Assembly (NCBI GenBank): GCA_963763745.1
Contig: CAVXQJ010000016.1
Span: forward strand, 577,029 to 607,100
Reading direction: 5' to 3'
DNA from: an uncultured delta proteobacterium
GTDB lineage: Bacteria > Myxococcota_A > Polyangia > Polyangiales > Polyangiaceae
DNA length: 30,072 nt
Positions within the stretch are counted from its first letter, which is position 1; the number at the start of each line of letters is the position of its first letter. Below the pieces are notes generated by a model. That model made no database searches, was not told the origin of the DNA, and saw only the letters and a program-made list of their open reading frames with translations. Below are positions 1-30,072 of this stretch, one piece after another. The position numbers were made by a program, and so were the translations under genes.

Positions 1-364
1 CGCGGGCGCGATGCCGAAGGACGGCCCTTCCGCTGGCGTGACGATGTTCACCGCGCTCACCTCGATGCTCACGGGCATCCGCGTGCGCCACGACGTCGCG
101 ATGACGGGCGAAATCACGCTGCGCGGCCGGGTCCTCCCGATCGGCGGCTTGAAGGAGAAGGTCCTCGCGGCACACCGCGCGGGCATCAAGCGCGTCATCG
201 TTCCGGATCGAAACAAGGCGGACCTCGACGAGGTGCCCGCCGAGGTGAAGAGCGATCTCGAGTTCGTCTTCGTCACGAAGATGGAGCAGGTGCTCGAGGC
301 CGCGCTCGAAGAAATGCCGAAGCCGAAGCCCAGCGAAGCCGCGGCGCCCGCGCCGGCGAACTGA
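1..364 (+). CDS. lon: ATP-dependent Lon protease, C-terminal S16 proteolytic domain (5' part lies outside the window)
   Basis: The frame of ORF 11..364 stays open to the window edge. Motifs PKDGPSAG (catalytic Ser) and [19 protein letters not shown] (catalytic Lys) align to the Lon peptidase domain. Stop TGA at 362-364. Confidence 0.9.
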
Positions 365-384
365 GCCGAACGCCAGAAGAAGGG

Positions 385-424
385 AAACGCGCTGCATCGC
401 GAGATGCGGCGCGTTTCGTTTTTT
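385..424 (+). terminator. Rho-independent terminator after lon
   Basis: GC-rich hairpin AACGCGCTGCATC (386-398) / loop GCGAG / ATGCGGCGCGTT (404-415), followed by the T-rich run tcgTTTTTT (416-424). It sits between the convergent lon and kinase genes. Confidence 0.6.
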
Positions 425-458
425 GTCACCTGTCAACGCCGCGCCGCGGCGAGCATCG

Positions 459-2069
459 TCACTTCCGCCCGCGACGGGTGACCTCGGCGCACGCGCGCGC
501 GTTTCCGTTGCGACATGCGTAGCGGAGGTTGTCGCAGTCGACCGTGCCTTGCGCCGGGCTGCGGTCGGCGCGGAAGCCCGAGCAGCTCGCGCCCTCCATG
601 CCGAGGAACGCGTCGCCGGCCGTGCAGGGCAGACACGAGGAGAGCGTGCCGTTCGGCTCGTGCGTGTTGATGAGCTTACCGGCGCGCGTCGTGTCGCCCG
701 TGTAGCCGTCACACGGGTCGCCGTCTTTCGCGGTGAGCGTCTTGCCGTAGACCTCGTCTGCGCACGTCGGAGAGTCGTCGTTCGTCCACGGTGTCTTGCA
801 GAGCGAGACACCGGACGAATTGGTGCACTTGCAGAGAGACGGACCAAGCTTCTCTCGCGCGCACAGGGTCGCCGTGCTGCCGGAGACCGGAAGACACAAG
901 CACCCGAGCTCGCCCGCGAGCGCAGGCGACGTCGTCGCGGCAGTCCGCGCGCTCGCTTGCGGAGCGGGCTCTGCGACCGCGTGCGTGTCGGCTGCGGAAG
1001 TCGCGCTCGCGCTCGGAGCTGCAGACGCGATGGGTGTATTCTGCACATTCACGCTCGGAGCGCTCGTGGGCGATGGCGCGCGACGCGCGGCGAAGAAGAC
1101 CGCGGTCGCGCCAACCGCGAAGGCCGCCGCGGCGACGATGGGCATCGGTGAGCGACGAACATTGCCGGTGGAGGTTTGCTGCGGCGTCGCGTGGAGCGCG
1201 GCGGTCGTCGCGACGTTCTTCGCGCCCGGATTCGGCTCGGGCAGGATCGCAAGCGAGCCCGTCGTGGCGCCGAGCGCGCGCGCGACTTCGGCCATGTCGG
1301 CGTGGCGCTGCGCGGGGTCGATCGACATCGCGCGCGCGATCGTCAAGCTCACCTCGACCGGCACCTCGCGCAAGAACGCGTGGAGCAGCGCAACGTCCCC
1401 GGTGCTGGGACGCATTCCGCTCAAAAGCTCGTACGCGGTGACGCCCCACGCCCACTGATCCCACAGCGGGCTTGGCGTCGAGCCGGCGCGCTGCTCCGGC
1501 GCCATGTACGCGCTCGTTCCGACGACGCGTCCCTCCGCCGTCCGCACGCTCATCGGAACGTCCGACGTCGGCGCCGACGTGTCGACCGCGACGATGCGCT
1601 TGGCGATGCCGAAATCGAGCACGCGGATTTGGCCGTCGTCCTTCGCGACGATCACGTTCTCGGGTTTCACGTCGCGGTGCACGATGCTCTTGGCGTGCGC
1701 AGCGGCAAGCACGCTCGCGAGCTGTTTGAGCCACTCGAGCTTGAGCGTCACCGGCCCGCTCGCGCCGACGTATGCGCGCAACGTTTGGCCATCGATGTAT
1801 TCCATCGCGAGAAACGGGACGCCGTCGATCTCGCCGGCGTCGAGGAGCGTCACCGCGTTCGGATGTTTGAGCGCCGCGGCCGAGCGCGCTTCGGAGAAGA
1901 GCCGCGCGACGGCTTCGGGTTTGTTCTTGTCGCGCCGCACGATCTTGAGCGCAACGAGACGCTGGAGCATCGTGTCGAACGCGAGCATGACCTCGCCCAT
2001 CCCGCCCGTGCCGAGCGGCGCGCGGATCTCGTAGCGTCCGAAGCGCGTGCCGACCTCCATGATCGCCAT
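459..2069 (-). CDS. Hanks-type Ser/Thr protein kinase, single-pass membrane protein with Cys-rich C-terminal (extracytoplasmic) domain
   Basis: Kinase motifs GTGGMGEV, VALK, HRDVKPEN, DFG, TSAYMAPE. Ala/Pro linker, a predicted TM segment (MPIVAAAAFAVGATAVFFAA), then ~150 aa with 14 Cys. The ORF extends to 2105; starts at 2069 or 2060 fit kinase N-termini better. Confidence 0.85.
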   Translation of the reverse strand: MAIMEVGTRFGRYEIRAPLGTGGMGEVMLAFDTMLQRLVALKIVRRDKNKPEAVARLFSEARSAAALKHPNAVTLLDAGEIDGVPFLAMEYIDGQTLRAYVGASGPVTLKLEWLKQLASVLAAAHAKSIVHRDVKPENVIVAKDDGQIRVLDFGIAKRIVAVDTSAPTSDVPMSVRTAEGRVVGTSAYMAPEQRAGSTPSPLWDQWAWGVTAYELLSGMRPSTGDVALLHAFLREVPVEVSLTIARAMSIDPAQRHADMAEVARALGATTGSLAILPEPNPGAKNVATTAALHATPQQTSTGNVRRSPMPIVAAAAFAVGATAVFFAARRAPSPTSAPSVNVQNTPIASAAPSASATSAADTHAVAEPAPQASARTAATTSPALAGELGCLCLPVSGSTATLCAREKLGPSLCKCTNSSGVSLCKTPWTNDDSPTCADEVYGKTLTAKDGDPCDGYTGDTTRAGKLINTHEPNGTLSSCLPCTAGDAFLGMEGASCSGFRADRSPAQGTVDCDNLRYACRNGNARACAEVTRRGRK

Positions 2070-2673
2070 GGTACGCTCGACGGCCATGCACGACGGCGTA
2101 TTCATCCACGAATCGGCCTACGTCGACGAGCCATGCACGATCGGCGAGGGGACGAAGATCTGGCATTTTTGCCACGTGCAGCGCGGCGCGAAGATCGGAC
2201 GCTCGTGCGTGCTCGGGCAGAACGTCAACGTGTCGAACGACGTCACGATCGGCGATCGCGTGAAGATCCAGAACAACGTGTCGGTCTACACGGGCACGAC
2301 CGTCGAGGACGACGTGTTCCTCGGCCCGTCGTGCGTGCTCACGAACGTGTCGAACCCGCGCTCGGAGATCAACCGCAAGGCCCAATACGAACGAACGCTC
2401 ATTCGGCGCGGCGCGACCATCGGCGCGAACGCGACGATCGTGTGCGGCGTCGCGATCGGTCGTTACGCGTTCATCGCGGCGGGCGCGGTCGTCTCGCGCG
2501 ACGTCCCCGACTTCGGTCTCGTGATGGGCGTGCCCGCGCGTCGCGTCGGTTGGATGAGCAAGCATGGCCATCGCCTCGAGAACCCCGACGCGGACGGCGT
2601 GATGACGTGCCAAGAGGGCAAGCTCAGGTACCGCGAAGAAAGCGGCGTGCTCCGCTGTCTCGACGAAGCATGA
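2047..2673 (+). CDS. Hexapeptide-repeat (left-handed beta-helix) sugar N-acetyltransferase, WbpD/PglD-like
   Basis: Repeated [LIV]GxxxxI hexapeptides (IGEGTKI, IGRSCVL, IGDRVKI, IGANATI, IGRYAFI). GTG at 2047; alternative ATG starts at 2059, 2068 and 2086. Stop TGA 2671-2673 overlaps the next ATG. Confidence 0.8.
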   Translation: MPTSMIAMVRSTAMHDGVFIHESAYVDEPCTIGEGTKIWHFCHVQRGAKIGRSCVLGQNVNVSNDVTIGDRVKIQNNVSVYTGTTVEDDVFLGPSCVLTNVSNPRSEINRKAQYERTLIRRGATIGANATIVCGVAIGRYAFIAAGAVVSRDVPDFGLVMGVPARRVGWMSKHGHRLENPDADGVMTCQEGKLRYREESGVLRCLDEA

Positions 2674-3758
2674 TGCGCATTCCATTCGTCGACTTGCGCC
2701 GCGACGTGCGCGACGACCGAGAGCTCGAGGCCGCGTTTCGTCGCGTGCTCCAGAGCGGGAAGTACATCCTCGGCGAAGAGGTCGAAGCGTTCGAGCGCGA
2801 GTGTGCGCGCGTCGTCTTTGCGCGTCACGCGATCGGCGTGTCGTCGGGCACCGACGCGCTGCTCGCGTCGCTGATGGCGCTCGGCATCGGGCCGAGCGAC
2901 GAAGTGATCTGCCCCGCGTATACGTTCATCGCGACGGCCACGGCGGCATCGCGTTTGGGCGCGACGCCGGTCTTCGCGGACGTGAGGCCGTGCTGTTTCG
3001 GTCTCGACGCAGACGACGCGGCGCGCAGGATCACACGGAAAACACGGGCGATCATCGTCGTGCATCCGTTCGGGCAAGTCGCGCACCTCGAGGCCATCGA
3101 GCGCGTCGCGCGCGAGCACGGCATCGCGCTCGTCGAGGACGCCGCGCAATCGATCGGCGCGCCGCAACGCGTCGCTGGACGCGTCTCGTGTCTCTCGTTC
3201 TTTCCGTCGAAGAACATCGGCGCGCTCGGCGACGCGGGCCTCGTCGCGACGGACGACGACGAGCTCGCGGCGATCGTGAGGTCGCTCCGCGTGCACGGCG
3301 CCGTCGCGAAGAACGATCACGTGCGCATCGGCGGCAACTTCCGCATGGATGCGCTGCAAGCCGCGCTCCTTCGCGTGAAGCTCCGTCGCATGGACGAAAT
3401 CACGAACAAGAGGCGCGCGAACGCGACGCTCTACGACGAGCTCCTCGCGGGCGCGACCGGCGTGAGCACGCCGAAGCGGTGCTCGGGCGCGCACGTCTTC
3501 AACCAATACATCGTGCGCTCGAACGCGCGCGATGCGCTCCGCTCTCGCCTCGCGGACGCGAGCATCGAGACGGCCATCTACTACCCGCGCCCGCTCCACG
3601 AGCACGCGTGCTTCGCGCACCTGCCGCGCACGAGCCTGCCGGTCGCAGAGGAAGCCGCGAGGACGACGCTCGCGCTCCCGATTTTCCCGGAGCTCACGGA
3701 GGAAGAAATCCGTCACGTCGCTTCTCAGGTCGCTTCGAGCACCGAGCGAAGCAAGTAG
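2670..3758 (+). CDS. PLP-dependent sugar aminotransferase, DegT/DnrJ/EryC1/StrS family
   Basis: 362 aa. Family-typical N-terminus (IPFVDL...), the PLP-Lys context SFFPSKNIGALGDAG and the C-terminal YYPRPLHE...LPIFPELTEEE. ATGA start/stop overlap with the upstream acetyltransferase. Confidence 0.85.
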   Translation: MMRIPFVDLRRDVRDDRELEAAFRRVLQSGKYILGEEVEAFERECARVVFARHAIGVSSGTDALLASLMALGIGPSDEVICPAYTFIATATAASRLGATPVFADVRPCCFGLDADDAARRITRKTRAIIVVHPFGQVAHLEAIERVAREHGIALVEDAAQSIGAPQRVAGRVSCLSFFPSKNIGALGDAGLVATDDDELAAIVRSLRVHGAVAKNDHVRIGGNFRMDALQAALLRVKLRRMDEITNKRRANATLYDELLAGATGVSTPKRCSGAHVFNQYIVRSNARDALRSRLADASIETAIYYPRPLHEHACFAHLPRTSLPVAEEAARTTLALPIFPELTEEEIRHVASQVASSTERSK

Positions 3759-6727
3759 AGCGCTTCGGCGCGCTCGACGGGGTGTAGCTCCGCGAGCGGC
3801 TTCACGACTTGGAGACGAAAGCCCGTGCACATCGTCTTGCTGTTCATCCACTTCGTGTCGGCGTGGAGCTGGACGGCGCCTTGCTCGCGGCTCATCTGGT
3901 ACCAGTTGCTCACGCCTTGCTCGCTGAGCACGCGCTGGAACGCGGAGTAGAAAATCGGCTGCGAGAGCTCGCGCCGGATCTCTTGCTTCGCGTCGTCGTC
4001 CGCCGCGATCGGGAGCGGCGTGCGCGCGAGCTGCGCGACGGGTTGAATGAGCCCGTAGTCGGTGAACGTGCGCGCCCACGTGTCGAGCGTCTTCGTGTCG
4101 AGCTCGGCGAAGTGCGGAACGCGGACCAACTCGGTGTCGCCGAGCGTGAGTGCGGAGTCTTCGATGTCAGCGAGCGAGCTGTCTTCCGCGACGCGAAACG
4201 TGACGAGCGCGCCGTCGCGCTCGACGGCCCAGACCATCGCGCGCGCTTGATGCTTGCCGAGCGGGTGATTCGCCCAACCCGCGAGGAACCGCGGCGCGGG
4301 AACGCGACGAGCGCTGCGCATCGCATCGACGAGACCGCGAGCGCGAAGACGCGCGATCGTGCGCACGTCTTCTTTGAGCTCGTCCCACCGCTCGCGCGCG
4401 AGGCGAATCGCGATCGGATCATCGGACGATTGCGCGCGCGGTATCGCAGCGAGCCTCTTTTCGCCGAGAAATAGAATCGGCGCGAGCGTCGTGTCGAACC
4501 CGACTTGTAGCGTGCGCGCGCCGTATTCGAGCGACGTCGTGCCCTCTTCGGCGAGCGCGGTCGTCGGCAGGAGCGTCTCGACGATCGCGTCGACGGACGT
4601 CGAGAGGCCGGTCGCGACGTTGCGCATCGAGTGTGGAGCGTCGCCGCGTTCGTGCGCGGTCGCGATCTCCATCGACGCGGAGCGCACGCCGCGAATCGCG
4701 AGGTGCTCGAGGACGCTATGAATCGTCGTGTGCTTGAGCGCGGGCGTGAGGCGACGAATCACGAGGTCGTTCGCGAAATGAACGAGCGACCAACGCATCC
4801 ACTCGAGCGCATCTTGTCGCCATCGCTTGGCGCTGTCCGCGAACGCGGCGAGGTCCCACACCATCTCCGCCAGCGAGTCCGGATCGCATGCAGCTTTCAA
4901 GTCCTCGAGGCCTGCGTACGGTTCTTCGATCGGCGAGAACGAGAGGATCTCGAGGACCCGCTCGTGCGCGTCGTCGGCGAACATTCGCCCATCGCGAAGT
5001 CGCGCGTGCTTGACGTGCGGCGCTTGCCCGAGCTTCACGGATTGCGAGGGAACGTCGAGGCGCGCATCGCGATCGAGGAGCTCCGCGATCATCGCCGTGT
5101 GCTCCGTCGGCACGAACGAGAGAATCGTCTCGCGATGACCGAGGCGCGCGAGCTTGCGGAGGGCGAGCACGCACGCGTGCTGGTAGTTGGGCTCGTGAAC
5201 GTGGGCGAGCAAACCGAACGCGGCTGCGCGCGGCTGCGCTTCGAACCACGACCACGTGTGTTGTCGCGCGAGCCACGCCGTCGCGAGGCCGAGCGCGATG
5301 CCCGCGTCGTCGATGCGATCGCGCACCTCGCGTTCGAGGTACGCGGCGCGACCCGTCTGGCGCAGGCCGGGGAGCGCGCGCTCGCCGAACGCGCCGAGCA
5401 TCAGCACGTCGATCGTGCCGGACCAGCGTCCGGCGTTGTAGAAGGCAAGCACCGTCTCGATCGGTATGGCGGCGTCGGCGAACTGGAACGAGTACACCGA
5501 GCCTTTCGCGCCTTGCGCGCCCATGAACTCGTTCAGCTGCTCCGCGTTCATGTACGGCTTGCCGCTGCGCTGCCTATCGAGCTCAGCGAGCGCTTTGTTC
5601 TTTTGTTCTTCCGAGACCTCGAGGCGCGATGACCACGTGGTGACATCGAGCCCGAGCTTCGGAAGCGCGAGCGCTCCTTTTCTCCACGGCGCGTCGCGCA
5701 GCACGGCGGGCATCGCGGGATCGTCCAGCGCGACGGTCTCGCCGGGCTCGGCGCTCGTCTGATCGCCGCAGATCTTGATGAGAAGCTCCTTCGCGAGCGC
5801 TGCGTTCCGCGATGCGCCCTCGCTCGCGGCGGGGAGCACTGCGGCCGCGAGCTTCTTGTCGTGCGTGAAGTAGTCGCCGATGATCTTGCGCGTCGGTGGA
5901 TTCGAGATTTGCTTCGCGAGGTGCTTCGCGGACGTTTCGTTGACGATGACGCTCATCGCGAGTGCGTGCGACAAACGGCGAGCGTGGCCCGTCGCGGCGG
6001 GCGCGAGCGAGAGCAAGATGGGGAGCGCGTCTTCGCCGAGCGACGCGACGATCTCGGGGTACGCGATCGCGTCGCTCTTCGTCGCGCGCGCGACGAGCGT
6101 GCGCATCGCGTCCTTGTCGCGCACGATCGCGAGCTGCCTCGAGTCGAACTTCGGCGCTTGGTCGAGGATCTCCGCGGCTGCCTGCGCGCGCCACGCCTCG
6201 TCGTCGAAGAACGCGTAGGCGAGGTGCTCGTGGACTTCGACGTCGCCGGCGTCCCACGTGGCCTGCGCGAGCTCGCGACACTTCGCGCGCACCGAGGCGT
6301 CGCGCTCCGACGCCAAGAGGATGCGCAGCATGTCGCCGTTCGGGCGTTTCTTGGCCGGTTTGATCACGCCGTCCACGTTCTCGAAGCGAGGCGTGATGAG
6401 AAGCGGCGCCACGCGTGCGGTCCCGAAGTGCTCCGCGAGCCACTCGCACGTGCGATCGCCGCCGGTCGCCACGGCGAAGACCGCGAGCTCGTCATCGGTG
6501 AGCGCGGTCGGGGCGTTTTCGAATTCGACGACGCGCGCGAGCACCGCGGCGATTGCCGGATCGTCTGCGCGAAGCGAGCGCTTCGCCCAATCGACCATGT
6601 ACTTGATGCCGCTCCACTCGCTGTAGCGCCAGCGGCCGCGGTTGTCCTTCACGTCGGTCGAGTTGCGCGGCGCGATGCAAATGCGCGCGGCGGTGTGCCA
6701 ATGAAGCGTCATTGGGAATGCGCGCAT
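3725..6727 (-). CDS. Large (1000 aa) alpha-helical protein of unknown function (possibly DUF4132-like C-terminal region; unverified)
   Basis: Uninterrupted 3-kb ORF with coding-like composition and no recognisable catalytic motifs. Starts 6 nt after the EBP stop. Its 3' end overlaps the convergent aminotransferase by 34 bp. Confidence 0.7.
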   Translation of the reverse strand: MRAFPMTLHWHTAARICIAPRNSTDVKDNRGRWRYSEWSGIKYMVDWAKRSLRADDPAIAAVLARVVEFENAPTALTDDELAVFAVATGGDRTCEWLAEHFGTARVAPLLITPRFENVDGVIKPAKKRPNGDMLRILLASERDASVRAKCRELAQATWDAGDVEVHEHLAYAFFDDEAWRAQAAAEILDQAPKFDSRQLAIVRDKDAMRTLVARATKSDAIAYPEIVASLGEDALPILLSLAPAATGHARRLSHALAMSVIVNETSAKHLAKQISNPPTRKIIGDYFTHDKKLAAAVLPAASEGASRNAALAKELLIKICGDQTSAEPGETVALDDPAMPAVLRDAPWRKGALALPKLGLDVTTWSSRLEVSEEQKNKALAELDRQRSGKPYMNAEQLNEFMGAQGAKGSVYSFQFADAAIPIETVLAFYNAGRWSGTIDVLMLGAFGERALPGLRQTGRAAYLEREVRDRIDDAGIALGLATAWLARQHTWSWFEAQPRAAAFGLLAHVHEPNYQHACVLALRKLARLGHRETILSFVPTEHTAMIAELLDRDARLDVPSQSVKLGQAPHVKHARLRDGRMFADDAHERVLEILSFSPIEEPYAGLEDLKAACDPDSLAEMVWDLAAFADSAKRWRQDALEWMRWSLVHFANDLVIRRLTPALKHTTIHSVLEHLAIRGVRSASMEIATAHERGDAPHSMRNVATGLSTSVDAIVETLLPTTALAEEGTTSLEYGARTLQVGFDTTLAPILFLGEKRLAAIPRAQSSDDPIAIRLARERWDELKEDVRTIARLRARGLVDAMRSARRVPAPRFLAGWANHPLGKHQARAMVWAVERDGALVTFRVAEDSSLADIEDSALTLGDTELVRVPHFAELDTKTLDTWARTFTDYGLIQPVAQLARTPLPIAADDDAKQEIRRELSQPIFYSAFQRVLSEQGVSNWYQMSREQGAVQLHADTKWMNSKTMCTGFRLQVVKPLAELHPVERAEALYLLRSVLEAT

Positions 6728-6733
6728 CGTACC

Positions 6734-8056
<1,323 letters not shown>

Positions 8057-8071
8057 CGGTCGATCATACTC

Positions 8072-9591
8072 TCAAAGATAAGGATTCGGCGGTGGGCCCG
8101 ATGCGGTCGCTGCCGGCGTCGTCGCGGTCGCAGTCGCGGTCGCGCTCGGCACGAGTCGCGGTCGCGTCGTGCGCGTCGTCATCGAGGCCGTCGCGCTGGC
8201 CACATCCGCGCTGTGCGCCGTGAACGTGAGCGACGCGATCGCCGGCTCGGCGATCGACGCGGTCGGAAGCGGGCTCTCTGCCGACGCGGCAGCTCTCACG
8301 GGCGGCGGCTTGTGCGTTGCGAACACGACCGCGCTCGCACCCGCGAGGAGCGCGATGCCCGCGACGACGACGACCACCGTGAGCGGTCGCGCGCGCGACG
8401 GGACTCCCGCGGGCGCGAGCGCGTCCGAAGTCGTTGGCTCCGCGCTTCCATAAACCGCCGTGTGCGCGGGCGCGGCGACGTTCGGGATCAGCACCGGTGC
8501 ATCGATCTCCGTCGTCGCCACCGCGGCCGGCGCGGCGGAGGGCGCGCTCGACGGCACGCTCGACGGAATGCTCGGCGGCTCCGCGCCCATCAAGCTCAAA
8601 AATCCCGGCTCCGACGCGAGCCGCTCGCGCACCTGCGCGCGGCGCGCCTCGAGCTGCGTCGCGGCGACGCGTTTGACGATCTCCGACACCTCCGCGTGCG
8701 ACGCGACGAGCCCCGCGCGCGCCGCGCACGACTCGAGCGCCGCTGCGAACGCGCGCGTCGTCGAGAAGCGTCGCTCCGGATCCTTGTCGAGCGCCGTCAC
8801 GAACACGTCGTCGAGCGCGGCGAGCTCCGGCGCGCCCGCGGACACGCGCAGCGCCTCGTGCGTCATGATCCGCTGCGCCGTCTCGACCTCGTTCTCGCCG
8901 CGGAACAACCGCTTCCCCGCGAGCGCCTCCCAACCGACGACGCCGAGCGCGAAGACGTCGACGCGGCGATCGATGCGGCGCCCTTGAACGTACTCGGGCG
9001 ACATGTACGCGAGCTTGCCTTTGAGCATGCCGCTGTTCGTCACGGCCATCGCCGTCGCCTTCGCCACGCCGAAGTCGGACACGCGCGTCGCGCCGTCGAT
9101 GCCGATGAGGAGATTCTGCGGCGACACGTCGCGATGCACGAGCCCGACGGGTCGTCCCTTTTCGTCGAGCAGCTCGTGCGCCGCGTGAAGCCCCGCGCAG
9201 GCTTCGAGCAAGATGCGAACGACGACGCGCGCCGGCACCTTCTCGTTCGCCTTGCTGGCGAGCACGAGCAGCTCGCCGAGCGACGCGCCCTCGATGTAGT
9301 CCATCACGAGCCGGATCTCTTCGTGCCGCCTTCGCCGGACGTGACGTACACGTCGCGCACGTCGACGACGTTCACGTGATGAATGAGCGACGCGAGCCGA
9401 GCCTCCGCCACGAGCTCCTTGCGGTAGCTCGGATCATCGAGCAGGTGCGGATGGGGTTCTTTGATCGCGACGATCTGGCGGAAGCCCATCGAGCCGCGCG
9501 CGGCGCCGACGTAAACGGTGGCCATCCCGCCCGACGCCAGCTTGAACAAGATGTCGTAGCGGGCGTCGCTCTTCCGCCGCTCCGTCGCCAT
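8072..9591 (-). CDS. Hanks-type Ser/Thr protein kinase with C-terminal TM segment and Ala/Ser/Thr-rich tail; reading frame interrupted by an apparent 1-nt deletion near 9311-9330
   Basis: Subdomains I-IV (GGMATVY, VAIK) lie in ORF 9304..9591. Subdomains V-XI (LVMDYIEGASL, HRDVSPQN, DFG, SPE) lie in ORF 8072..9307, in another frame. Restoring one base between ...SGEGG and EEIRLVMDY rejoins them. Confidence 0.75.
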
Positions 9592-9605
9592 CCCAGAACA
9601 CTACG

Positions 9606-10559: not shown

Positions 10560-10978
10560 TGGCACCCCGCGCCCGTGCACGAGCAGCCCGCCCCCGTGCA
10601 CGTGTCGTTGCACGTCCCGTCGCACTGAAACGAGCAACCGCCTCCGCTGCAAGACACGTTGCACACGGCGCCCGCCGCACATTCGACCGAGCAGCCGCCT
10701 TGGTCGCAAGAGAGGTTGCACGTCGAGCCGGCCGGGCACTTGTAGTCGCATCCGCCGCCCGCGCACGATCCGTTGCACACGTCGCCCGACGAGCAGGCCA
10801 AGCTGCACCCGCCCGACGCGCACGTTCCGTTGCAGATGTCGCCCCCGCACGTGTAGCCAACGGGCGCTTGCGCGTCGCCTGGCGGCGGTTTGTTTTCGCC
10901 GCCCACGCTCCAGTCGTAGAGACACGAGACGAGCAGCGCGCTCGTCACACTCGCTACGATCGCTTGCCTCGCGCGCAC
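10556..10978 (-). CDS. Small lipoprotein with tandem 19-aa Cys repeats (C-x3-C-x4-C-x3-C-x5)
   Basis: GTG start at 10978 with an AGGAG Shine-Dalgarno 7 nt upstream. Signal peptide plus lipobox LVSC. About four repeats of CN[GLV][ST]C-xxGGC-xxxC-xxGxx; 20 Cys in ~95 mature residues. Confidence 0.7.
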   Translation of the reverse strand: MRARQAIVASVTSALLVSCLYDWSVGGENKPPPGDAQAPVGYTCGGDICNGTCASGGCSLACSSGDVCNGSCAGGGCDYKCPAGSTCNLSCDQGGCSVECAAGAVCNVSCSGGGCSFQCDGTCNDTCTGAGCSCTGAGCH

Positions 10979-10982
10979 TCGC

Positions 10983-11832: not shown

Positions 11833-11868
11833 ACGCTCGAATATCCGCGCACGTGCGCGAGCTGCAAG

Positions 11869-19490: not shown

Positions 19491-19505
19491 AGTATGATCG
19501 AGCCG

Positions 19506-20855
<1,350 letters not shown>

Positions 20856-20861
20856 ACGATG

Positions 20862-23800
20862 CGCGCATTCCCAATGACGCTTCATTGGCGGCACACCGCC
20901 GCGCGCATTTGCATCGCGCCACGCAACTCGACCGACGTGAAGGACAACCGCGGCCGCTGGCGTACGGCGATTGTGGAGCAGCATCAAGTACTGGTGTAGA
21001 AGCGCTGGCTTCGCGCAGACAATCCGGCAATCGCCGCGGTGCTCCGCGCGCGTCGTCAAAGATCAAACGCCCCGACCACGCTGACCGATAACGAGCTCGC
21101 AGGGCGCAGCAATGGCGAGCAGGTGCAAGTGCAGCTACAAAGCCTTCGGGACCGCGCGCGTAGGCGCCGCTTCTCATCACGCCTCGCTTCAAGAACGTGG
21201 ACACGGTGATCAAACCAGCCAAGAAACACCCCAAAGCGCGACATGCTCCGCGTGTCTTGGCGTGGGAGGCGCGACGCCTCGGTGCGCGCGAAGTGTCGCG
21301 AGCTCGCGGGGGCACGTGGGACACCCGCGACGTCGAAGTCCACGAGCACCTCGCCTACGCGTTCTTCAACAACGATGCGTGGCGCGCGCAGGCCGCCGCG
21401 GAGAGAATCAACCAAGCGCCGAAGTTCAACTCGAGGGCAGCTCGCGATCGGGTACGACAAGGACGCGATGCGCACGCTCCGTCGCGCGCGCGACGAAGAG
21501 CGACGCAATCGCGTAGCCCGAGGAATCGTACCGTCGCTCGGCGAGGACGCACTACCCATCTTGCTCTCGCTCGCGCCCGCCGCGACGGGCCACGCTCGCC
21601 GTTTGTCGCGCGGGGGCGTGGTGGGCACCAAAACAACGAAACGTCCGCGAAGCACCTCGCGAACGAAATCTCGAATCCACCGACACGGCAAGATCGTCGG
21701 CGACTACTTCACACGAACAAGAACTCGCGGCCAGCAGTGCTTCCCGCCGCGAGCGAGGGCGCATCGCGGAAAACACGAATTTCGACATGTTCCGGCGATC
21801 AGACGAGCGCCGACGCCGGCGAGACCCGGTCGCGCTCAAGGACAATCCCGGGGCGCTGCGCCAGTGCTGCGCGACGCGCCGTGTAAAAGGAGGCGCTCGC
21901 GCTTCCGAAGCTCGGGCTCGATGTCACCACCGTGGTCATCACACTCCGAGATCTCGGAAGAGAAAAGAAGAGGGGGACACCGAACTCGATAGGGCAGCGC
22001 CAGCTGCAGAGCCGTACGTGAACACAACCTAAGCTGAACGAGTTCCATAGGCGCGCAAGGCGCGAAAAGGCTCGGTGTACTCGTTCCCAGTTCGCCGAGC
22101 ACCGCCATACCAATCGAGACGGTGCTTGCCTTCTCAACGAATCGCCGGACGCTGGTCCCACACTAATCGACGTGCTGATGCTCGGCGCGGGCAGCGAGCG
22201 CGCGCTCCCCGGCCTGCACCAGGGGAGCTCGCGCCGGGTACCTCAAACGCGAGTTACGCGATGCGCATCGACGACGCGGGCATCGCGCTCGGCCTCGCTG
22301 ACAGCGGTAGGCTCGCGCGGACAACACACGTAGTAGTGGTTCGAAGCGCAGGGGGGGGCCCTCGTTCAAGCCCAGGGCTCTACCAGCACGCGTGCGTGCT
22401 CGCCCTCCGCAAGCTCGCGCGCCTCGGTCATCGCGAGGACGGTTCTCTCGTTCGTGCCGACGGAGCACGCGGCGAAAATCGCGGAGCTCCTCAATCGCGA
22501 TACGCATCTCAAAGCGCAGGTTCCCTCGCAAATGCGTGAACTTCGGGCAAGCGCACGGGCGTCAAGCACGCGCAAAAGCTCATGTTTCACCGAGAGAGCA
22601 GACGAGCAGGTGATGGAGATGCCTCTGTTCTCACCAAAAATCGAACCATTACACAGCCTCGAGGACTTGAAAGCTGCATGCAATCCAGAACTCGGCTCAG
22701 CGAGGAGATGGTGTGTGGGGGAGGCTCTCGCCGCGTTCGCGGACAGCACCAAGGCGAGATCGCGACAAGATGCACTCGAGTGAATGCGTTGGTCACTCGT
22801 TCATTTCGCGAACGACCTCGTGATTCGTCGCCTCACGCCCGCGCTCAAGCGCGCGACAAATTCATAGCGTCCTCGAGCACCTCGCGATTCGCAGCATGGA
22901 AACCGCATCAATGGAGGGGATCCGCGACCGCGCACGAACGCGGCGACGCTCCACACTCGATGCGCAACGTCGCGACCGGCCTCTCGAAGTACCAGTCAAC
23001 GCGATCGTCGGAGACGCTCCTCCCAACAACCGCGCTCGCCGAAGAGGGCACGACGGGGGGCTCAGCGCGCGCACGCTACACTCCGGGTGCTCGCGGCGAG
23101 TCTATTTCTCGGCGAAAAGAGGCTCACTGCGAGAGCTACCGCGCGCGCAATCGTCCATTGATCCAATCGCGGAGACCCGCCTCGCGCGCGAGCGGTGGGG
23201 GGGGGGACAAGCTTCGATCCGCGCGGGGCCAAGTCTTCGCGCTCGCGGTCTCGTCGATGCGATGCGCAGCGCTCGTCGCGTTCCCGCGGGGCGGGTCCTC
23301 GCGGGTTGGGCGAATCACCCGCTCGGCAAGCATCAAGCGCGCGCGATAGTCTGTGGCCATCAAGCGCGACGGCGCCCAGCTGCGTAGTGCGTCGCGGAAG
23401 ACAGCTCCACTCGCGTGGCATCAAAGCTCAGCAGCTCACGCTCGGCGACACCCGTAGGTCACGAGTTCACACTTGGGCGAGTTCCGAACACGAAGACGGC
23501 TCCGAACCGTGGGCGCGCACGTTGGGGGCCTACGGGCTCATTCAACCCGTCAGGGCAGGCTCGGCCCGCGCACGCCGCTCCCAATCGCGGCGGACGACGA
23601 CGCGAAGCAAGGAGATCCGGCGCGAGCTCTCGCAGCCGATTTTCTACTCCGCGTTCCACACCGTGCTCAGCGAGCAAGGCGTGAGCAACTGGGAGTGATT
23701 GAGCCGCGAGCAAGGCGGGGGACAAATCAAGGGGCACGAAGTGGATGAAGCGCCAAGACGATGTGCACTGGCTTTGGTCTCCAAGTCGTGAAGCCGCTCG

Positions 23801-23869
23801 CGGAGCTACACCCCGTCGAGCGCGCCGAAGCACTCTATTTGCTTCGCTGGTGCTCGAAAAACAACGTGA
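20862..23869 (+). pseudogene. Decayed copy of the 1000-aa protein
   Basis: ATGCGCGCATTCCCAATGACG at 20862 (MRAFPMTLHW). C-terminal VVKPLAELHPVERAEALYLLR at 23761-23848. Many frame changes and G-runs of 6-10 nt. Confidence 0.55.
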
Positions 23870-24770
23870 CGGATTTCTTATTCCGTGAGCTCCGGGAGAA
23901 TAAGACTACTCTGCGACCGGCAGGTCCGTGCGCGGCAGGTGCACAAACACACGTGCCTGCGGGGCGCGGGCGCGGGTAGTAGATGGCCGTCTCGATGCTC
24001 GCGTCCGCGAGGCGAGAGCAGACGCATCGCGCGCGTTCGAGCGCACGATGTATTGGTTGAAGACGTGCGCGCCCGAGCACCGCTTCGGCGGCTTGCTCGC
24101 GCCGGTAGGGGGGGCGAGGAGCTCGTCGAAGTGCGTCGCGTTCGCGCGCCTCTTGTTCGTGATTTCGTCCATGCAACAGAGGTTCTTCACGCGAAGGAGC
24201 GCGGGCTTGCCGCATCCATCAGGAAGTTGCCGCCGATGCACACGTGATGGTTCTTTTCGCGACGGCGCCGTGCACGCGGAACAATTCTGGCGAATCGCCG
24301 GCGAGAGCTCCGTCGTCGTCCGTCGCGGAGCGAGGGCCCGCGTCGCCGAGCGCCGGCCGATCCTGTTGCAACAGGAAAGAACGAGAAAGCGAGACGCATC
24401 CAGCGACGCGTTGCGCGGCGCGCCAATCGATTGCGCAGCATCCTCGACGAGCGCGATGCCGTGCTCGCGCGCGAGGACGCCGCTGGATGGCCTCGAGGTG
24501 CACGACTTGCCCCGACGGATACAGCAACAAAGTAGGATGGCCATTGGTTTCCGTGTAATCCTGCGCGCCGCGTCATTGTCGAGACCGAAACAGCACGGCC
24601 TCCACGTCCGCGAAGACCGGCGTCGGCGCCCCGACGATGCCGCCGTGGCCGTCGCGATGAACCTATACGCGGGGCAGAATGGCTTCATTGCAGTTTCCAG
24701 CCGATGCCAAGCGCGCGACGCGAGCAAGGTGCCCGACGACACGCCGAGTGCGCAAGACGACGCGCGCACA
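23835..24770 (-). pseudogene. Decayed copy of DegT aminotransferase
   Basis: FCPAYRFIATATAAS, HGIALVEDAAQSIGAP and RLADASIETAIYYPRP...ERSK-stop at 23835. It keeps the ~34-bp convergent overlap with the neighbouring copy. Confidence 0.55.
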
Positions 24771-25350
24771 CTCCGCGCTCAAACACTTCCGACCTTTCGC
24801 CGAGGATGTACTTCCCCGCTCTGGAGCACGCGACGAAACGCGGCCTCAAGCTCTCGGTCCCATCGCACGTCGCAGCACCATGAAGTGGAATTGCATTACC
24901 GCTTCTTCGGCGAGTACGTGAGCTTGCCCTCTGTAGGGCACGTCATCACGCCGTCCACGGTCGGCGATGGCCATGCTTGCTATCCAACCGGGCGCCTGTA
25001 GCGACCAAAGTGGGGACGTCGGCGCGAGACGATCCGCGCCCGCCGGCAATAAAGGCGTGACAAAGCCGGTGCAGCGAATGGCACACAAATACGTCCGTTC
25101 ACACACCGAGGTGGGCTGGCGCCACACCGAATGATATTGGGCTTGCAGATCTCCAAGCGCGGGTTGCGCGTTTCGTGACACACATCATCCTCCCCGACGA
25201 TGGTGCCCGTGTAGACCGACACCATATTTATGAATCTTAGCACAGAATGGTTGACATGGTTCGACGCCCGAGCACGTCCGAACTTCCGCGCCGCTGCACG
25301 TGGCGGAGTTGCCAAATGTCATCCTCGCCAATCGTACCATCGTCCTCGTG
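24770..25350 (-). pseudogene. Decayed copy of hexapeptide acetyltransferase
   Basis: ORF 24980..25315 has NMVSVYTGTIVGEDDV... matching NVSVYTGTTVEDDVF. Confidence 0.45.
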
Positions 25351-26920
25351 GATCCGCCGTCCGTGGCGTACCATCACAAATGGTGAAGTGGCACCGGCTT
25401 CAGACGCTGCGAATCCGCCCGTTCGGCACAGGCGGGGATAGGCCGGTAGTGTTCACGAGTTCGACACGATGCTCCAGCGTCTCGTTGCGCTCCGAGGACA
25501 TAGTGCGGCGCGACAAGAACAAAACCCAAAGCCGTCGCGCGCCTCTTCTCGGAAGCGCGCTGCGGCCGCGGCTGGCGTAACCCGAACGCGGTAGGGCACG
25601 CTCCTCGACGCCGGCGACATCGACGGCGTCCAGGCTTACCGCGATGAATGCATCAATAGCCAACGCTACGGCGCTCAGTTCGCGCGAGCAGCTGCAGTTG
25701 AAGCCAAGCTCCGAGTGGCTCCAAACAGCTCGCGAGCTGCGCACGCCAAGAGCATCGTGCACCGCGACGTCAAAGTCCGAGAACGTAATGGTCGCGAAGG
25801 ACGACGGCCAATCCGCGTGCTCGATTTCAGGAATAGCGGCATCGTCGCGGTGTCGACACGTCGGCGCCGAACATGCGGACGGTTGTGAGACACTGCGCAC
25901 GGCGGTTCGTCGGAACGAGCGCGTACATGAGGCGCCGGAGCAGCGCGCCGGCGCAAAGTTTCCTGCTGTGGGAGTGCGTGGCGGTGGGCGCGTGCCACAA
26001 TGGTCCCAGCACCCGGATATTCGCTGCTCCACGCGTTCTTGCGCGAGGTGCCGGTCGAGGTGAGCTTGACAATCGCGGCGCGCGATGTCGAATCGACCCC
26101 GCGCAGCGCCACGCCGACATGGCCGAGAGTCCGCGCGCGCGCTCGGCGCCACGACGGGCTCGCTTGCAATCCTCCCGAGCCAATCCGGGCGCGAAGAACA
26201 TCACGACGACCGGCCGGGCACGGTCCACGCGACGCCGCAGCAAACCTCCACCGGCAATGTTGGTCGGCTCCGCCGATCCATGGTCCACCACGGCGGCCTT
26301 CCGCGGTTGGCGCGACGCGGTCTTCTTCACCGCGCATTCGCGCGCCATCACGGCCCACGAGTGCTCCGAGCGTAATATACAGATACACCCATCACATTAC
26401 TGCAGCTCCGAGGCGCAAGCGCTCTTCCGCACGCGGTCGCAGAGCCCGCTCCGCAAGCAAGCGCGCCGACTGCCGCGACGACGTCACCGCGGGCGAGCTC
26501 GGGGTGCTTGTGTCTTCCGGTCTCCGGCAGCACGGCGGAGCCTGCTGGTCCGTCTCTCTGCAAGTGCGCCAATTCGTCCGGTGTCTCGCTCTGCAACACC
26601 GTGGACGAACGACGACTCTCCGACGTGCGCAGACGAGGGTGAATACGGCAAGACGCGAAGTTTCCGTGTGAGACGCTACACGGGCGACACGACGCGCGCC
26701 CGTAAGCTCATCAACACGCACGAGCCGAACGGGCACGCTCTCCTACAGCCTCTGCCCTGCACGGCCGGCGACGCGTTCCTCCACATGGAGGGCGCGAGCT
26801 GGGGCTTCCGCGCCGACCGCAGCCCGGCGCAAGGCACGGTCAACAACCTCCTACGCATGTCGCGACGGAAACGCGCGCGCGCGCGCCGAGGTAGACCCGT
26901 CGCGGGCGGAGGTCGGACGA
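25330..26920 (+). pseudogene. Decayed copy of receptor Ser/Thr kinase 459-2069
   Basis: NVMVAKDDGQ and VGTSAYM kinase fragments. The Cys-rich tail TPWTNDDSPTCADE...YTGDTTRARKLINTHEPNG...LPCTAGDAFLHMEGAS has frameshifts. Confidence 0.55.
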
Positions 26921-26951
26921 TGCTCGCCGCGGCGGGGCGTTGACAGGTGAC

Positions 26952-26991
26952 AAAAAACAAAACGCGCAGCATCTCGCAATGCGGCGCGTTT
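26952..26991 (-). terminator. Mirror copy of the lon terminator hairpin (6 substitutions in 80 bp relative to 361-440)
   Basis: AAACGCGCAGCATCTCGCAATGCGGCGCGTTT preceded by AAAAAAC on the top strand. It retains a stem but has one disrupted pair. Confidence 0.4.
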
Positions 26992-27011
26992 CCTTTCTTC
27001 TGGCGTTCGGC

Positions 27012-29400
27012 TCAGTTCGCCGGCGCGGGCGCAGCGGCTTCGCTGGGCTTCCGCTTGGGGCTTTTCTTCAAGCGCTGAGAGAGCACCTGCTCCATCTTCA
27101 GATTGGTGGCGAGAGCGAATTCGAGATCGCTTTCACCTCGGCGGGCACCTCGTCGAGGTCCGCCTTGTTTTCCGAAGATCCGGAACGATGACGCGCTTGA
27201 TGCCCGCAGCGGTGTGCCGCGAGGACCTTCTCCTTCAAGCCGCCAATCAGCTCCGGCCGCGCAGCCTCACCAGTCATCAGTGAGGTAGGCACTAGTGGTC
27301 AAGGTGAGCGCGGTGAATTTTTCGGAAGGGCCATATTTCGGCACCGCGCCCGGCGGGGATGTGGATGTGGATGTCACGCTTGTGGAAGTCCTTGGCGATG
27401 CCAAACTCTCCGGTCCGCGCGGGACCGTAGCTGAGGGCCGCTTGCGCAGACTGCTTCATAACATCACCGAGCTGACCCGTGAGCTGCAGCTTGCCGGAGC
27501 CGGGCCCCGCGTGCTCCCAGTCGCTTGCCCGAATAAAGGAATCTCTCCCGCCGACGCTCGTCCGTGCGCTCCGCGACTTCCGACAAGCGTTGCGCGCCGA
27601 GCACCTGCTCTTCGGTTTCGAATCTTGCATAGGCTGAGGTTCGGAGGAGCCCTGCGCGACACCGCGGATGACGCTCGCCACTTGGCGCTCGAGCGTACGA
27701 ACGCCCGGCTTCAGCGGCATCCTCTGATCCGATTGAGTGTGCATGTGGAGAGCGCCCTTGTCCGTGATGTCGAGCTGCTCTTTGGAGATGCCAGTGCTCC
27801 TCGAGCTGCTTGGATGAGGTGGCGCTTGGCGATGCGCAACTTTCTGCCACTTTTCCGGTGACACCGGGATCTCGAGGAATCTCCAGTGCGTCGCGGAGCG
27901 GACGGGAAGTAGGATCCCCAGCGATGTTGGCCGTCGCGAACAAACATCACGTCATAGGGACGCTGCGAAGGAGTAGTGAATCCGCGAAGCTCAAAGTCTG
28001 CTCGGTGGAGCAGCTTCGAGCAAATGCGGCCGCGGGGTCCTGGCGGAAAAGCAATTCAAGACCTCGTCGAAGAGCATGAAGACCAGGTAGTGGTTCCGAC
28101 CTTCTTCATGCCTTGGAATCTGCTCCGGGCAGCGCGCCAACGAACGTACTGCAGCGGCATAGTTCACGATCCACGCCTGGTCCGTGAACACCGCCAAGGC
28201 GATGCAGTCGAATTTGCGACCAAGCGAGCGCGCAATCAATCGACCAAGACGACGTCTTACCAGGGGCGAGCCGATGAGACAGAGGATCGGACCCTTCTTG
28301 TCCTTCTTCTACGAGCTTGCGAACGGCGCACGAGGATGCGCTTAGCAGCCATGGTGAAATTCATCCGAGCTCCGCAATCTGGATTATGCAGGGGTCTGCT
28401 GAGTTCACGGCAAATCGTAGAGATCCAATCAAAAATCTAATGCAGACAACGGTGTACTCCGCCGACACTCCATGTTGCGGAGGCGCTTGAGTTGCTTCTT
28501 GGCGGGGACTCCTGCCGGCCTCTTGGGAGGCTCGCCTTGGCGATTTGAAATCCTCGAGAACCATGAAGGTCCACCTTGAGATACACCATCATCCTCAGCC
28601 AACTATCTTTAATCGCCTTGAGCTGTTGAGCAGAACGTACTCGCGCTGGTTCTTGCCCATCTCTTCTTTGAGAATCTGCAAGTTGATGCGGTCGCGCATC
28701 TTGGCTGCCCGAGCTGCCGCACGTGAGAAGACGCAGCACCTTGCGGATGCGCTCTTTTCCAGCATCAACCGTCTGCGAGCAGCGCCCCACCTTCTCGTCG
28801 ACCGGCGCGTCGAGGTTCGCCGCGGACGGAATCCGCGACACACCAGGCGCTTGGAATACAATCAATAAGCGAGCCCTTCGCGCGGCAGCTCGGGCATGAG
28901 CTGGATAACTGCTTCGCGATGTCGCGGTACCGCATCGTCGCCGACGGGTTCGAGCTTGATCTTTCACCTTCATGTACGGCGCGCCTTCGTCCGCATCGCT
29001 GACTGGATGCGCGTGAGGCAAGATGAGCGAGTAGATTTCCACTCGAATACTTAAGCGCCTTCGGCACGGCGCACCGCGCACCTGATAAATGGTCTTCCAC
29101 CCGCGATAGTCGAGTCGACGGACCTGCGCGAAGAATCGCAATGATGGGCGACGTCAGATTGTCAACGTCTTCAACAAGCGCGACCCATTTCTCCGCGGCC
29201 CCGTCGAAGCGGGCGACCCGCGCCCGGAAAGAGCACGGCATTGCGAATCGCACAGCTTCATCGCCGAACACGACCGGTTCGGCAAGTGCGTCACAGCCTG
29301 CGGGCGGCGGGGGAGCTTTCCTTCTCGTCGTCGGTGGGACCTTATAGTCTATCCAATGAACTAACTCGGAAGCAGACACAAGGAAGGTCCACACAGCCAC
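27012..29400 (-). pseudogene. Decayed Lon protease gene (mirror of lon; extends beyond what the left arm shows)
   Basis: Minus-strand fragments run from C- to N-terminus. [14 protein letters not shown]...[13 protein letters not shown] (27098-27292). GKLQLTGQLGDVMKQSAQAALSY and GVRTLERQVASVIRG (27292-27864). IARSLGRKF...LVFMLFDEV of the AAA+ region (27991-28239). QREYVLL (28595-28861). GC falls from ~60% to ~50% across it. Confidence 0.55.
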
Positions 29401-30072
29401 CTCTTTTCTGGGTGCGGCGGAGCAGCATTAGAACGCGAAAACCTGCGTTGAAGTAGACATTTCTCAGCACCGAAGCCAAAGTTAGCGAAGAACTGCCTGA
29501 CTGGATGCGCAGTTCACAAGAGAGCAGACGCCGCGGAAGAAGAAGAGCTTCCCTTGGATTTGCCACGCTGAAGTGCACGCCCCTCTGCGGGCCGTCAAAG
29601 ATCAGTTGATGCCAAATCGTCGAGGCGCCGCGCGACGCGGCCGTTGCGAAACGGAAACGCCAAGTGGTCACCGCGCGGAGTGACCGTTTCGATCCATGTA
29701 GTATGATTGCGGCCGATGTCGAAGCCTTCCGCACGAAGCCGAGGACCAAGCCGTCGTGTCTGCCGGTGAAGTGGTAGCCAAACTCGAGCATCGCAGGGTG
29801 CGAATACGTTTGCGTTCCCGCCGACGGATATGCCAGTCCACACGCCGAACGAGAGCTCGCCCTTGCACGTAGAAAAGGACCACGCGTCGGAGTCTTCGAA
29901 CGCGCGCGCGGGAGACGCCGTGGAATGCGGCGCCCAAGTGCAAGGGCAGCGCTGAAGGCGGCGAGCTCGAACGCATGAGTCGGTACCTATACCGCGTCCG
30001 GTGGTATACGTGACGCATAGAAGCTGGGAATCAACTTTGGGACGACGCAGAGGCCACTGCATCAACAAATGT

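Follow-up and report, generated by a model that had tools for sequence, protein, structure and literature searches.

The stretch of DNA analysed here (the window; 30,072 nt from an uncultured delta proteobacterium) reads as a gene cluster followed by its own mirror image, which raises the question of whether the genome carries this cluster twice or whether the second copy arose during sequencing and assembly. Comparison of the window with its own reverse complement (blastn) revealed extended collinearity and so upheld the giant palindrome described in an earlier, sequence-only reading. Two collinear HSPs were obtained: 118-9033 pairs with 27265-18636 at 80.2% identity with 363 gap openings, and 9203-18600 is self-palindromic at 76.3% identity. 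Together, they place the mirror of 118-13910 at 14022-27265, around a unique centre of ~110 nt, whose borders differ by only two nucleotides from the 13911-14019 proposed before (Table 1). The mirrored gene order on the opposite strand is likewise supported by both self-alignment and gene annotation. Mirrored coordinates sum to 27383 at the outer end and to 27932 at the centre (13910 + 14022), so that the right arm is 549 nt shorter, in agreement with the earlier estimate of ~550 bp. Identity between the arms averages ~80%, with the worst 100-nt bins at 57-70%, and peaks next to the centre, as also noticed before: it reaches ~97% between 13788-13910 and 14030-14152, the first ~120 nt past the turn (about 96% in the earlier estimate), and is ~80% thereafter. 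The palindrome does not end at 27376, as had been thought. A degraded Lon on the minus strand (27384-30072), recognisable by Lon_C positions 34-103 at ~27349-27567, a Lon_lid fragment and a Walker-A-like stretch, extends the mirror further; since this wrecked lon runs to the last nucleotide of the window and mirrors DNA to the left of it, the arms must be at least 16 kb long.

Table 1. Features of the window, in nucleotide positions counted from its first letter.
Feature	Position	Strand	Basis or remarks
Left arm, probable first-pass copy	1-13910	+	Pfam, orthologue tblastn, self-alignment
Clean stretch, probable multi-read consensus	1-9300		GC3 0.85-0.95, zero frameshifts in any gene
lon 3' end	2-364	+	
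Ser/Thr kinase	459-2105	-	
Hexapeptide acyltransferase	2047-2673	+	
DegT aminotransferase	2670-3758	+	
DUF4132	3725-6727	-	
FHA-sigma54 activator (EBP)	6734-8056	-	
Second Ser/Thr kinase	8078-9591	-	
Two hypothetical proteins	9609-10601 and 10986-11633	-	
Nudix gene	~11869-12400	+	Split over three reading frames
PD40-like fragment	~12990-13950	-	
Non-mirrored centre, probable fold-back turn-round	13911-14021		Alignment
Right arm, reverse complement of left arm	14022-27383	+	Every gene copy shattered over three frames
Purine homopolymers, right arm only	18337-24114	+	A8 at 18337, G8 at 22351, G10 at 23197, G7 at 24108
Right-arm sigma54-activator (EBP) copy, deviant error profile	19470-20990	+	AT>GC bias, fewer indels
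Right-arm continuation, degraded lon and upstream region	27384-30072	-	G+C 0.58-0.62

The differences between the arms bear on the kind of process that separated them. Relative to the left arm, 14022-27383 carries ~10% substitutions, 7.4% missing bases and 4.4% extra bases, and no coding periodicity was seen in it. Over 13.8 kb, 1374 substitutions are accompanied by 654 indel events, which amounts to about one indel event per 2.1 substitutions and one per 21 nt, far denser than the frameshift every 100-300 bp reported from the sequence alone. More than half of these events (364 of the 654) involve a single nucleotide; missing bases (1020 nt) exceed extra ones (605 nt), with a tail of deletions reaching 35 nt. 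The substitutions are strongly strand-asymmetric: G>A changes outnumber C>T changes by 372 to 74 (rate ratio 5.1, p=8e-50), A>G versus T>C and C>A versus G>T each differ 2.2-fold, and the right arm has an excess of A and a lowered G+C content. The ratio of transitions to transversions is 0.92, and the three codon positions are hit nearly evenly (309/245/326 substitutions, 31% of them synonymous). As mutation of duplex DNA should affect complementary classes near-symmetrically, the unequal classes point to error on a single strand. Taken together, the differences have the character of miscalled bases on a single sequenced strand and lack that of mutations in double-stranded DNA.

According to the sequence-only reading, the right arm is biological and decayed: the cluster would have been duplicated in inverted orientation long ago, and mutation would since have reduced the second copy to pseudogenes. 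Such decay would fit the mirrored gene order and a right arm that is ~20% divergent, shorter and broken in all its genes, and some right-arm variants in the EBP segment do resemble real homologue states. However, an arm of pseudogenes should differ mainly by substitutions, symmetrically between strands, with an excess of transitions and with orthologue states shared evenly along its length, and the arm observed here shows the reverse on each count: its differences are indel-rich, deletion-skewed, biased five-fold towards G>A, poor in transitions and almost indifferent to codon position, its purine homopolymer insertions are confined to one strand, and, except in the EBP segment, it agrees with orthologues no more often than expected by chance. 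The ~97% identity beside the centre is also unlike uniform ancient decay, and the left arm, too, is frameshifted near the centre. We regard ancient duplication followed by decay as having a practically negligible probability.

The left arm behaves as genuine sequence over most of its length. Orthologues align to its genes within single reading frames (tblastn, 51-80% identity), whereas the right-arm copies yield only fragments at 30-60%; the left-arm EBP aligns to its orthologues in one frame at 77-80% identity. Independent confirmation comes from a Logan contig (run ERR11594405), in which the DegT and DUF4132 proteins of the left arm are residue-identical. Quality declines towards the centre, with no frameshift in the first 9.3 kb, then one, then two in the Nudix gene and nine within the 480 nt adjoining the centre. 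The single frameshift (at ~9316-9337, near 9325) lies in the second kinase, on the minus strand, and puts the N-terminal 85 aa in another frame, while orthologues of this kinase are intact at 486-494 aa. In the Nudix gene (~11.87-12.4 kb), only profile positions 21-69 of 134 are matched in one frame. Frameshift-aware alignment to P0125 placed the nine frameshifts in the PD40-like coding sequence at 12990-13474 (minus strand, ~480 nt), and the mirror copy at 14400-14990 contains eight. Near the centre, both arms are therefore of raw-read quality, and the long intact open reading frames formerly ascribed to the left arm as a whole hold for 1-9300 but not beyond, where the kinase, Nudix and PD40-like regions are frameshifted. 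An apparently intact 212-aa open reading frame at 12328-12966 is probably no gene, as no homologue of it, not even the protein itself, was found in the protein collection. Low arm-to-arm identity near the centre was discarded as a gauge of left-arm error, because it is equally low at 9.6-10.6 kb, where the left arm is intact.

One segment of the right arm departs from the general error profile. At sites where the arms differ, the right arm carries the orthologue state in 33% of cases within the EBP copy, compared with 10-17%, or about chance, elsewhere. Owing to these orthologue-like variants at 19470-20990, the right arm cannot be purely raw sequence, and an origin from a single read then requires the additional assumption of mis-polishing. 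The segment was probably mis-polished with reads of homologous genes: the highly conserved sigma54 AAA+ domain could have allowed such reads to align, which would have pulled the right arm towards the homologues at this place. An origin of the entire right arm from the orthologous region of a related species was rejected in view of the near-even codon positions and the chance-level orthologue agreement outside the EBP copy; it is also contradicted by the ~97% identity at the centre and by the joining of the arms at one mirrored point.

We then consider the centre itself. An open reading frame crosses 13911-14021 without a natural gene start, and no convincing self-complementarity was found in these ~110 nt, even though the flanks are ~97% concordant. 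Nanopore ligation, rapid (Mu-end), PCR and 2D-hairpin adapters as well as the PacBio SMRTbell adapter were scanned along both strands of the whole window, and the centre was not the top match for any of them. Positions 13968-14019 do align end to end with a concatenated bottom-plus-top nanopore adapter, the alignment stopping where the right arm begins. Its score of 18 compares with a background of 11.6±2.3 and falls in the top 1.65% of tiles, which lacks significance once the number of attempts is taken into account; against one variant, 12% of the shuffled palindromic adapters do equally well. This weak sequence resemblance gives a hint of a possible nanopore adapter junction. The top score of the window belongs to an adapter-like 25-mer at 11793-11817, which is intergenic and present in both arms and was taken as a chance or genomic match.

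Other long-read artefacts could also place a mirror in a contig. A missed SMRTbell adapter in PacBio CLR sequencing, or an inverted chimera from multiple displacement amplification, might replace the nanopore fold-back, both being known sources of palindromic long reads (10.1101/173872; PMC13265396). A missed PacBio adapter should leave a SMRTbell sequence at the centre and errors dominated by insertions. Errors in CLR data are insertion-rich, whereas those observed here are rich in deletions and substitutions, and no SMRTbell-like sequence was found at the centre, which is not among the tiles with the highest scores for this adapter. This origin is highly improbable; a multiple-displacement chimera read on a nanopore, on the other hand, would be indistinguishable here and forms a sub-case of the explanation that we prefer, a nanopore-type fold-back read.

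Alternatively, the centre could be the covalently closed hairpin telomere of a linear replicon, with the other strand written by the assembler as an inverted extension. Hairpin telomeres are found in linear bacterial replicons and phages (Borrelia, the linear chromosome of Agrobacterium, N15), and reading through such a closed end likewise yields an inverted terminal duplication in an assembly. Reads of a single orientation would account for the good quality of the first arm and the poor quality of the second, and the observed error pattern is compatible with this. A hairpin tip, however, should be a perfect palindrome with few unpaired bases, while the window has an asymmetric, non-palindromic spacer of 60-110 nt there, right beside base calls that are ~97% concordant. 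Moreover, PD40-like coding sequence reaches the turn and an open frame passes through it, no telomere resolvase (protelomerase) was found within the window, and the quality of the left arm collapses towards the tip, where a real end would be well covered. We consider a hairpin telomere very unlikely.

Among GTDB species representatives, only a 36%-identical relative of the DUF4132 protein was found instead of the cluster. An exact 39-mer adjoining the centre is absent from JGI metagenomes, and no independent contig across the centre was found, although the Logan contig described above carries the left-arm DegT and DUF4132 sequences exactly. Three relatives (L002-L004) share a p204-p335-kinase(-EBP) block, with synteny stopping before the Nudix/PD40 region. 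The close relatives originate from ENA metagenome assemblies whose contig names are Flye-style (contig_31385, contig_65831), which is consistent with a long-read project.

The error spectrum alone does not prove an artificial junction, since a physically real fold-back would be base-called with equal degradation. We weighed a fold-back present in the DNA of this uncultured, Myxococcota-like bacterium itself: a linear replicon might end there in a closed hairpin, or at least 16 kb might have been duplicated in inverted orientation very recently, with the divergence of the second arm being a nanopore artefact in both cases. Taken together, these possibilities appear unlikely. The duplication by itself, near-perfect and with a spacer of ~110 bp, is quite unlikely. 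Bacterial chromosomes are not known to tolerate long, perfect palindromes around short spacers, which undergo SbcCD-dependent cleavage. Reads from the far side of a true duplication would furthermore give a good right arm, but the observed one is uniformly bad; the loss of left-arm quality towards the centre suggests very low support; the right arm merely retraces the left one outwards, beyond the start of the window; and the junction lies within the open frame lacking a natural gene start. In favour of a true duplication, the ~97% identity by the centre shows that both arms have a common source sequence, and genuine inverted duplications gave the same read behaviour in earlier work (Spealman et al, PMC7229812).

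In our assessment, the palindrome is very probably an assembly artefact, a stretch of contig derived from one fold-back long read and left unpolished. The second arm looks like the badly read opposite strand of the same DNA molecule. The inner arm ends, 13910 and 14022, lie ~110 nt apart on opposite strands, within the ~200 bp typical of fold-back reads; accuracy drops sharply after the junction, with missed bases, following a left arm that is clean for 9.3 kb; and the errors are strand-specific, both in G>A versus C>T and in purine homopolymers occurring only on the plus strand. Mirror structure, error spectrum, quality gradient and the independent confirmation of the left arm are direct observations, from which we infer a nanopore-type platform, support by a single read and a position at or near the end of the contig. 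A single molecule would have been sequenced first as one strand and, beyond the fold-back junction, as its complement; the resulting read would have extended the metagenome contig, so that 14022-30072 would represent a second pass, with poor base calling, over a locus already read. Once through the pore, the first arm may pair with the second, leading to faster translocation and to missed and wrong base calls. Polishing would then have failed on the right arm because genuine reads of this region find a better match in the correct left arm. Read support for the true locus presumably dwindles towards the junction, which would lower the left arm to single-read quality.

With the gene cluster present in one copy and not two, the palindrome would have no biological importance, and ~16 kb of a 607-kb contig in the public record is apparently noise. 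Through gene calling, this noise has been deposited as "proteins": the protein collection includes right-arm open reading frames of 743 aa and 335 aa, and a protein search found the former, the longest in the right arm, on record nowhere else. Arms of this kind make genomes look larger and richer in genes than they are, add spurious pseudogenes and singleton protein families, and could pass for structural variation or gene decay. Long-read metagenome assemblies could be screened for mirrors with indel-rich, strand-asymmetric differences, with purine homopolymers in one arm and a quality gradient towards the turn as further signs.

Several known systems resemble the window. Fold-back artefact reads make up ~0.55-0.6% of nanopore reads of genomic DNA, their halves map within 200 bp of each other on opposite strands, and less than half of all reads flagged as artefacts, counting fold-back and chimeric ones alike, contain sequence between the aligned segments; if not cleaned, they can tangle assembly graphs, according to the authors (Heinz, Meyerson & Li, 2026; PMC12870357). 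The window shares with them opposite-strand halves ~110 nt apart without a clear adapter in between, but its artefact would be fixed in an assembled contig, whereas theirs are seen in individual reads. Across the junctions of inverted duplications, nanopore reads are normal up to the junction, beyond which phred scores are low and bases are mismatched or missed, over a stretch that matches the length of the part before (Spealman, Burrell & Gresham, 2020; PMC7229812). Similarly, the window is usable before its junction and afterwards rich in mismatches and missed bases (a net loss of 549 nt), with degradation starting shortly past the junction and continuing over a length comparable to the first arm. 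That study, however, dealt with true genomic inverted duplications in yeast and human and with signal-level evidence (current uplift, fewer samples per base), while the window offers a consensus only. Inverted chimeric molecules from whole-genome amplification and reads with missed hairpin adapters also produce forward-plus-reverse-complement reads and corrupted assemblies (10.1101/173872; PMC13265396). The window differs from these in showing no evidence of amplification, no SMRTbell at its centre and errors that are not dominated by insertions.

Comparison of the window with its own reverse complement by blastn returned two collinear matches, in agreement with the giant imperfect palindrome that the sequence-only reading had proposed. 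Positions 118-9033 pair with 27265-18636 (80.2% identity, 363 gap openings), and 9203-18600 forms a self-palindromic match with 76.3% identity. Paired arm coordinates add up to 27932 at the centre but to 27383 at the outer end, which leaves the right arm short by 549 nt, and fine alignment places the inner arm ends at ~13910 and ~14022, on either side of a centre of ~110 nt that has no mirror counterpart; the earlier estimates of a ~110-nt unique centre and a ~550-nt right-arm loss both hold. Identity is indeed highest beside the centre, reaching ~97% in the fine alignment of 13788-13910 with 14030-14152; farther out it is ~80%, with the worst 100-nt bins at 57-70%. The palindrome does not end at 27376, as had been read. 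A broken Lon protease occupies the minus strand of 27384-30072, beyond the mirror limit at 27383: Lon_C profile positions 34-103 directly adjoin the sequence that mirrors the Lon_C end of the left arm and are followed by a lid fragment and then a Walker-A-like stretch. Thus, only the edge of the window truncates the left arm, and each arm measures at least 16 kb.

The left arm is an ordinary high-G+C gene cluster (G+C 0.66-0.73), whose genes were assigned by Pfam and orthologue comparisons. The names of the organisms in which its homologues occur suggest that it probably belongs to a Myxococcota-like bacterium.

Features of the window, with the positions of the putative signalling block in related contigs (L002-L004)
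Feature	Sequence	Position (nt)	Strand	Placement
lon 3' end	window			first left-arm gene
Ser/Thr kinase (first of two)	window			left arm, after lon 3' end
Hexapeptide acyltransferase	window			left arm, after first kinase
DegT aminotransferase	window			left arm, after hexapeptide acyltransferase
DUF4132 protein, 1000 aa	window	3725-6727	minus	left arm
FHA-sigma54 activator	window			left arm, after DUF4132
Ser/Thr kinase (second)	window			left arm, after FHA-sigma54 activator
Two hypothetical proteins	window			left arm, between second kinase and Nudix
Nudix	window	~11.87-12.4 kb		left arm
PD40-like fragment	window			left arm, last before centre
Signalling block	window	6734-11633		
Signalling block	L002	8041-12819		
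Signalling block	L003	8056-11470		
Signalling block	L004	6107-13016		
Motif GCGTCACGCGTGAC	window	11707-11720		
Motif GCGTCACGGGTGACGC	window	11750-11765		
25-mer TGTCTCGTTCTGTTCCGTATTCGC	window	11793-11817		
ORF, 335 aa	window	13902-14909		right-arm noise
ORF, 743 aa	window	18860-21091		right-arm noise

An independent 4.7-kb Logan contig (run ERR11594405) encodes both the DegT and the DUF4132 protein with no residue changed. At its 3' end, the DUF4132 gene shares a 34-nt overlap with the convergent DegT gene. Among GTDB species representatives the DUF4132 protein has a single relative, encoded by a Myxococcales MAG (L001), with 36% identity across the DUF4132 region. The 204-aa-type protein ends in a C-terminal part (~10986-11300, minus strand) made up of a run of short Cys/Gly-rich repeats (…CNGTCASGGCSLACSSGDVCNGSCAGGGCDYKCPAGSTCNLSC…) without a Pfam match. 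In the divergent intergenic region between this minus-strand gene and the plus-strand Nudix gene lie two palindromic motifs, GCGTCACGCGTGAC and GCGTCACGGGTGACGC, near-identical and ~43 bp apart, which resemble paired operators for a dimeric regulator.

The closest relatives found were ENA metagenome assemblies with Flye-style names (contig_31385, contig_65831) and a forest-soil scaffold. The block of 204-aa protein, 335-aa protein and Ser/Thr kinase is kept in three related metagenome contigs (51-90% protein identity over aligned segments). The FHA-sigma54 activator directly follows the kinase in L002 (77%), is separated from it by two additional genes in L004 (80%) and has no gene call in L003. 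This arrangement looks like a conserved signalling module. At the expected activator position, L003 has only a 99-aa call (12514-12813), and several adjoining genes are short fragments, which hints that this sibling long-read assembly is likewise frameshift-affected.

With the left arm as reference, the right arm differs by 1374 substitutions; bases are deleted in 300 events (1020 nt, with a tail of longer events reaching 35 nt) and inserted in 354 (605 nt). The right arm is broken, as had been noted, but with indel events ~21 nt apart on average, the majority of them single-base, rather than a frameshift every 100-300 bp. The ts/tv ratio between the arms is 0.92. Scored on the plus strand of the right arm, G>A outnumbers C>T (372 versus 74; rate ratio 5.1, p=8e-50), and both A>G over T>C (149 versus 62) and C>A over G>T (120 versus 54) show a 2.2-fold excess. 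The right arm is A-rich, lower in G+C and contains A8, G8, G10 and G7 runs without left-arm counterparts. Substitutions in well-defined genes are spread over codon positions 1/2/3 as 309/245/326 (31% synonymous), third-position G+C periodicity is absent from the right arm, and its gene copies are each scattered across three frames. Mutation of double-stranded DNA is expected to leave a nearly strand-symmetric, substitution-dominated pattern, whereas single-strand reading errors need not. Against this expectation, the indel-rich, strand-asymmetric spectrum argues strongly against evolutionary decay; it contradicts the earlier view of the right arm as an ancient decayed copy, which retains practically no probability.

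One right-arm stretch, the copy of the sigma54 activator at 19470-20990, departs from this pattern. Its substitutions are AT>GC-biased (GC>AT elsewhere) and its indels rarer than in the rest of the arm; frameshifts are still present. Here, the right arm agrees with the L002 orthologue at 33% of arm-differing sites, compared with 10-17%, roughly chance level, for the kinase gene and both hypothetical genes. The simplest reading suggests mis-polishing by homologous-gene reads: since cognate reads map to the left arm, which is correct, polishing would draw this highly conserved, multi-copy AAA+ domain closer to homologue-derived reads.

Quality also drops stepwise along the left arm towards the centre. 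Positions 1-9300 contain no frameshifts (GC3 0.85-0.95), so the intact ORFs ascribed to this arm are present there; beyond, the description fails. The second kinase has one frameshift (~9316-9337) relative to three intact orthologues (486-494 aa), Nudix is spread over three frames, and the PD40-like region 12990-13474 has nine frameshifts in ~480 nt. Frameshift-aware alignment to a PD40-like homologue (P0125) gives nine for the left arm and eight for the mirror copy, and the right arm holds frame better in places. This fall is as expected if read support thins to a single read at the centre. A genuine recent inverted duplication would show the same degraded reading, but opposite-side reads should then have yielded a good right arm and bacteria are not known to maintain long near-perfect palindromes with short spacers; we consider it improbable. 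A hairpin telomere at the centre, for which one-directional reads are likewise expected, is harder still to credit: the ~110-nt centre is asymmetric, PD40-like coding sequence reaches it and an open frame crosses it, no resolvase is in view in the window, and left-arm quality is poor beside the tip.

No independent assembly spanning the centre was found among GTDB species representatives or, by exact 39-mer, in JGI metagenomes. The centre weakly matches a nanopore adapter junction and lacks SMRTbell-like sequence; the latter, together with errors that are not insertion-dominated, makes a missed PacBio adapter unlikely. The window's best match to the nanopore top adapter is TGTCTCGTTCTGTTCCGTATTCGC (score 16 versus background 8±1.6). 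Since it lies between genes and has a mirror copy in the right arm (~16080-16100), it is probably a chance match or genuine genomic sequence rather than untrimmed adapter.

Because the window fits two published descriptions of nanopore reads, given below, we conclude that the contig was very probably extended by a single fold-back read, running down one strand and back along its complement, the second arm of which would have stayed uncorrected. Single-read support and a contig-end position of the palindrome are predicted. Although the deposited sequence does contain the structure, the organism itself most likely does not. The structure serves as a warning: about 16 kb of apparent noise, called "proteins" included, sits inside a public contig of 607,100 bp. 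Two right-arm-noise ORFs (335 and 743 aa), one spanning the fold-back centre, are singleton clusters in a public protein collection; thus, the artefact has already yielded deposited "proteins".

Fold-back artefact reads account for ~0.55-0.6% of nanopore genomic reads, probably originate in library preparation and, if uncleaned, can tangle assembly graphs; their halves lie on opposite strands within 200 bp of each other, and fewer than half of flagged artefact reads (fold-back and chimeric) have any searchable sequence between aligned segments (Heinz, Meyerson and Li, PMC12870357). The window likewise has a ~110-nt gap between opposite-strand halves. Nanopore reads are of typical quality before an inverted-duplication junction and of low quality after it, with mismatches and missed bases over a stretch whose length correlates with the pre-junction length, which was attributed to faster translocation caused by the two arms pairing once beyond the pore (Spealman et al, PMC7229812). 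Similarly, the first arm of the window is usable, the arms agree well for ~120 nt past the turn, and at least 16 kb of deletion-skewed collapse follows.
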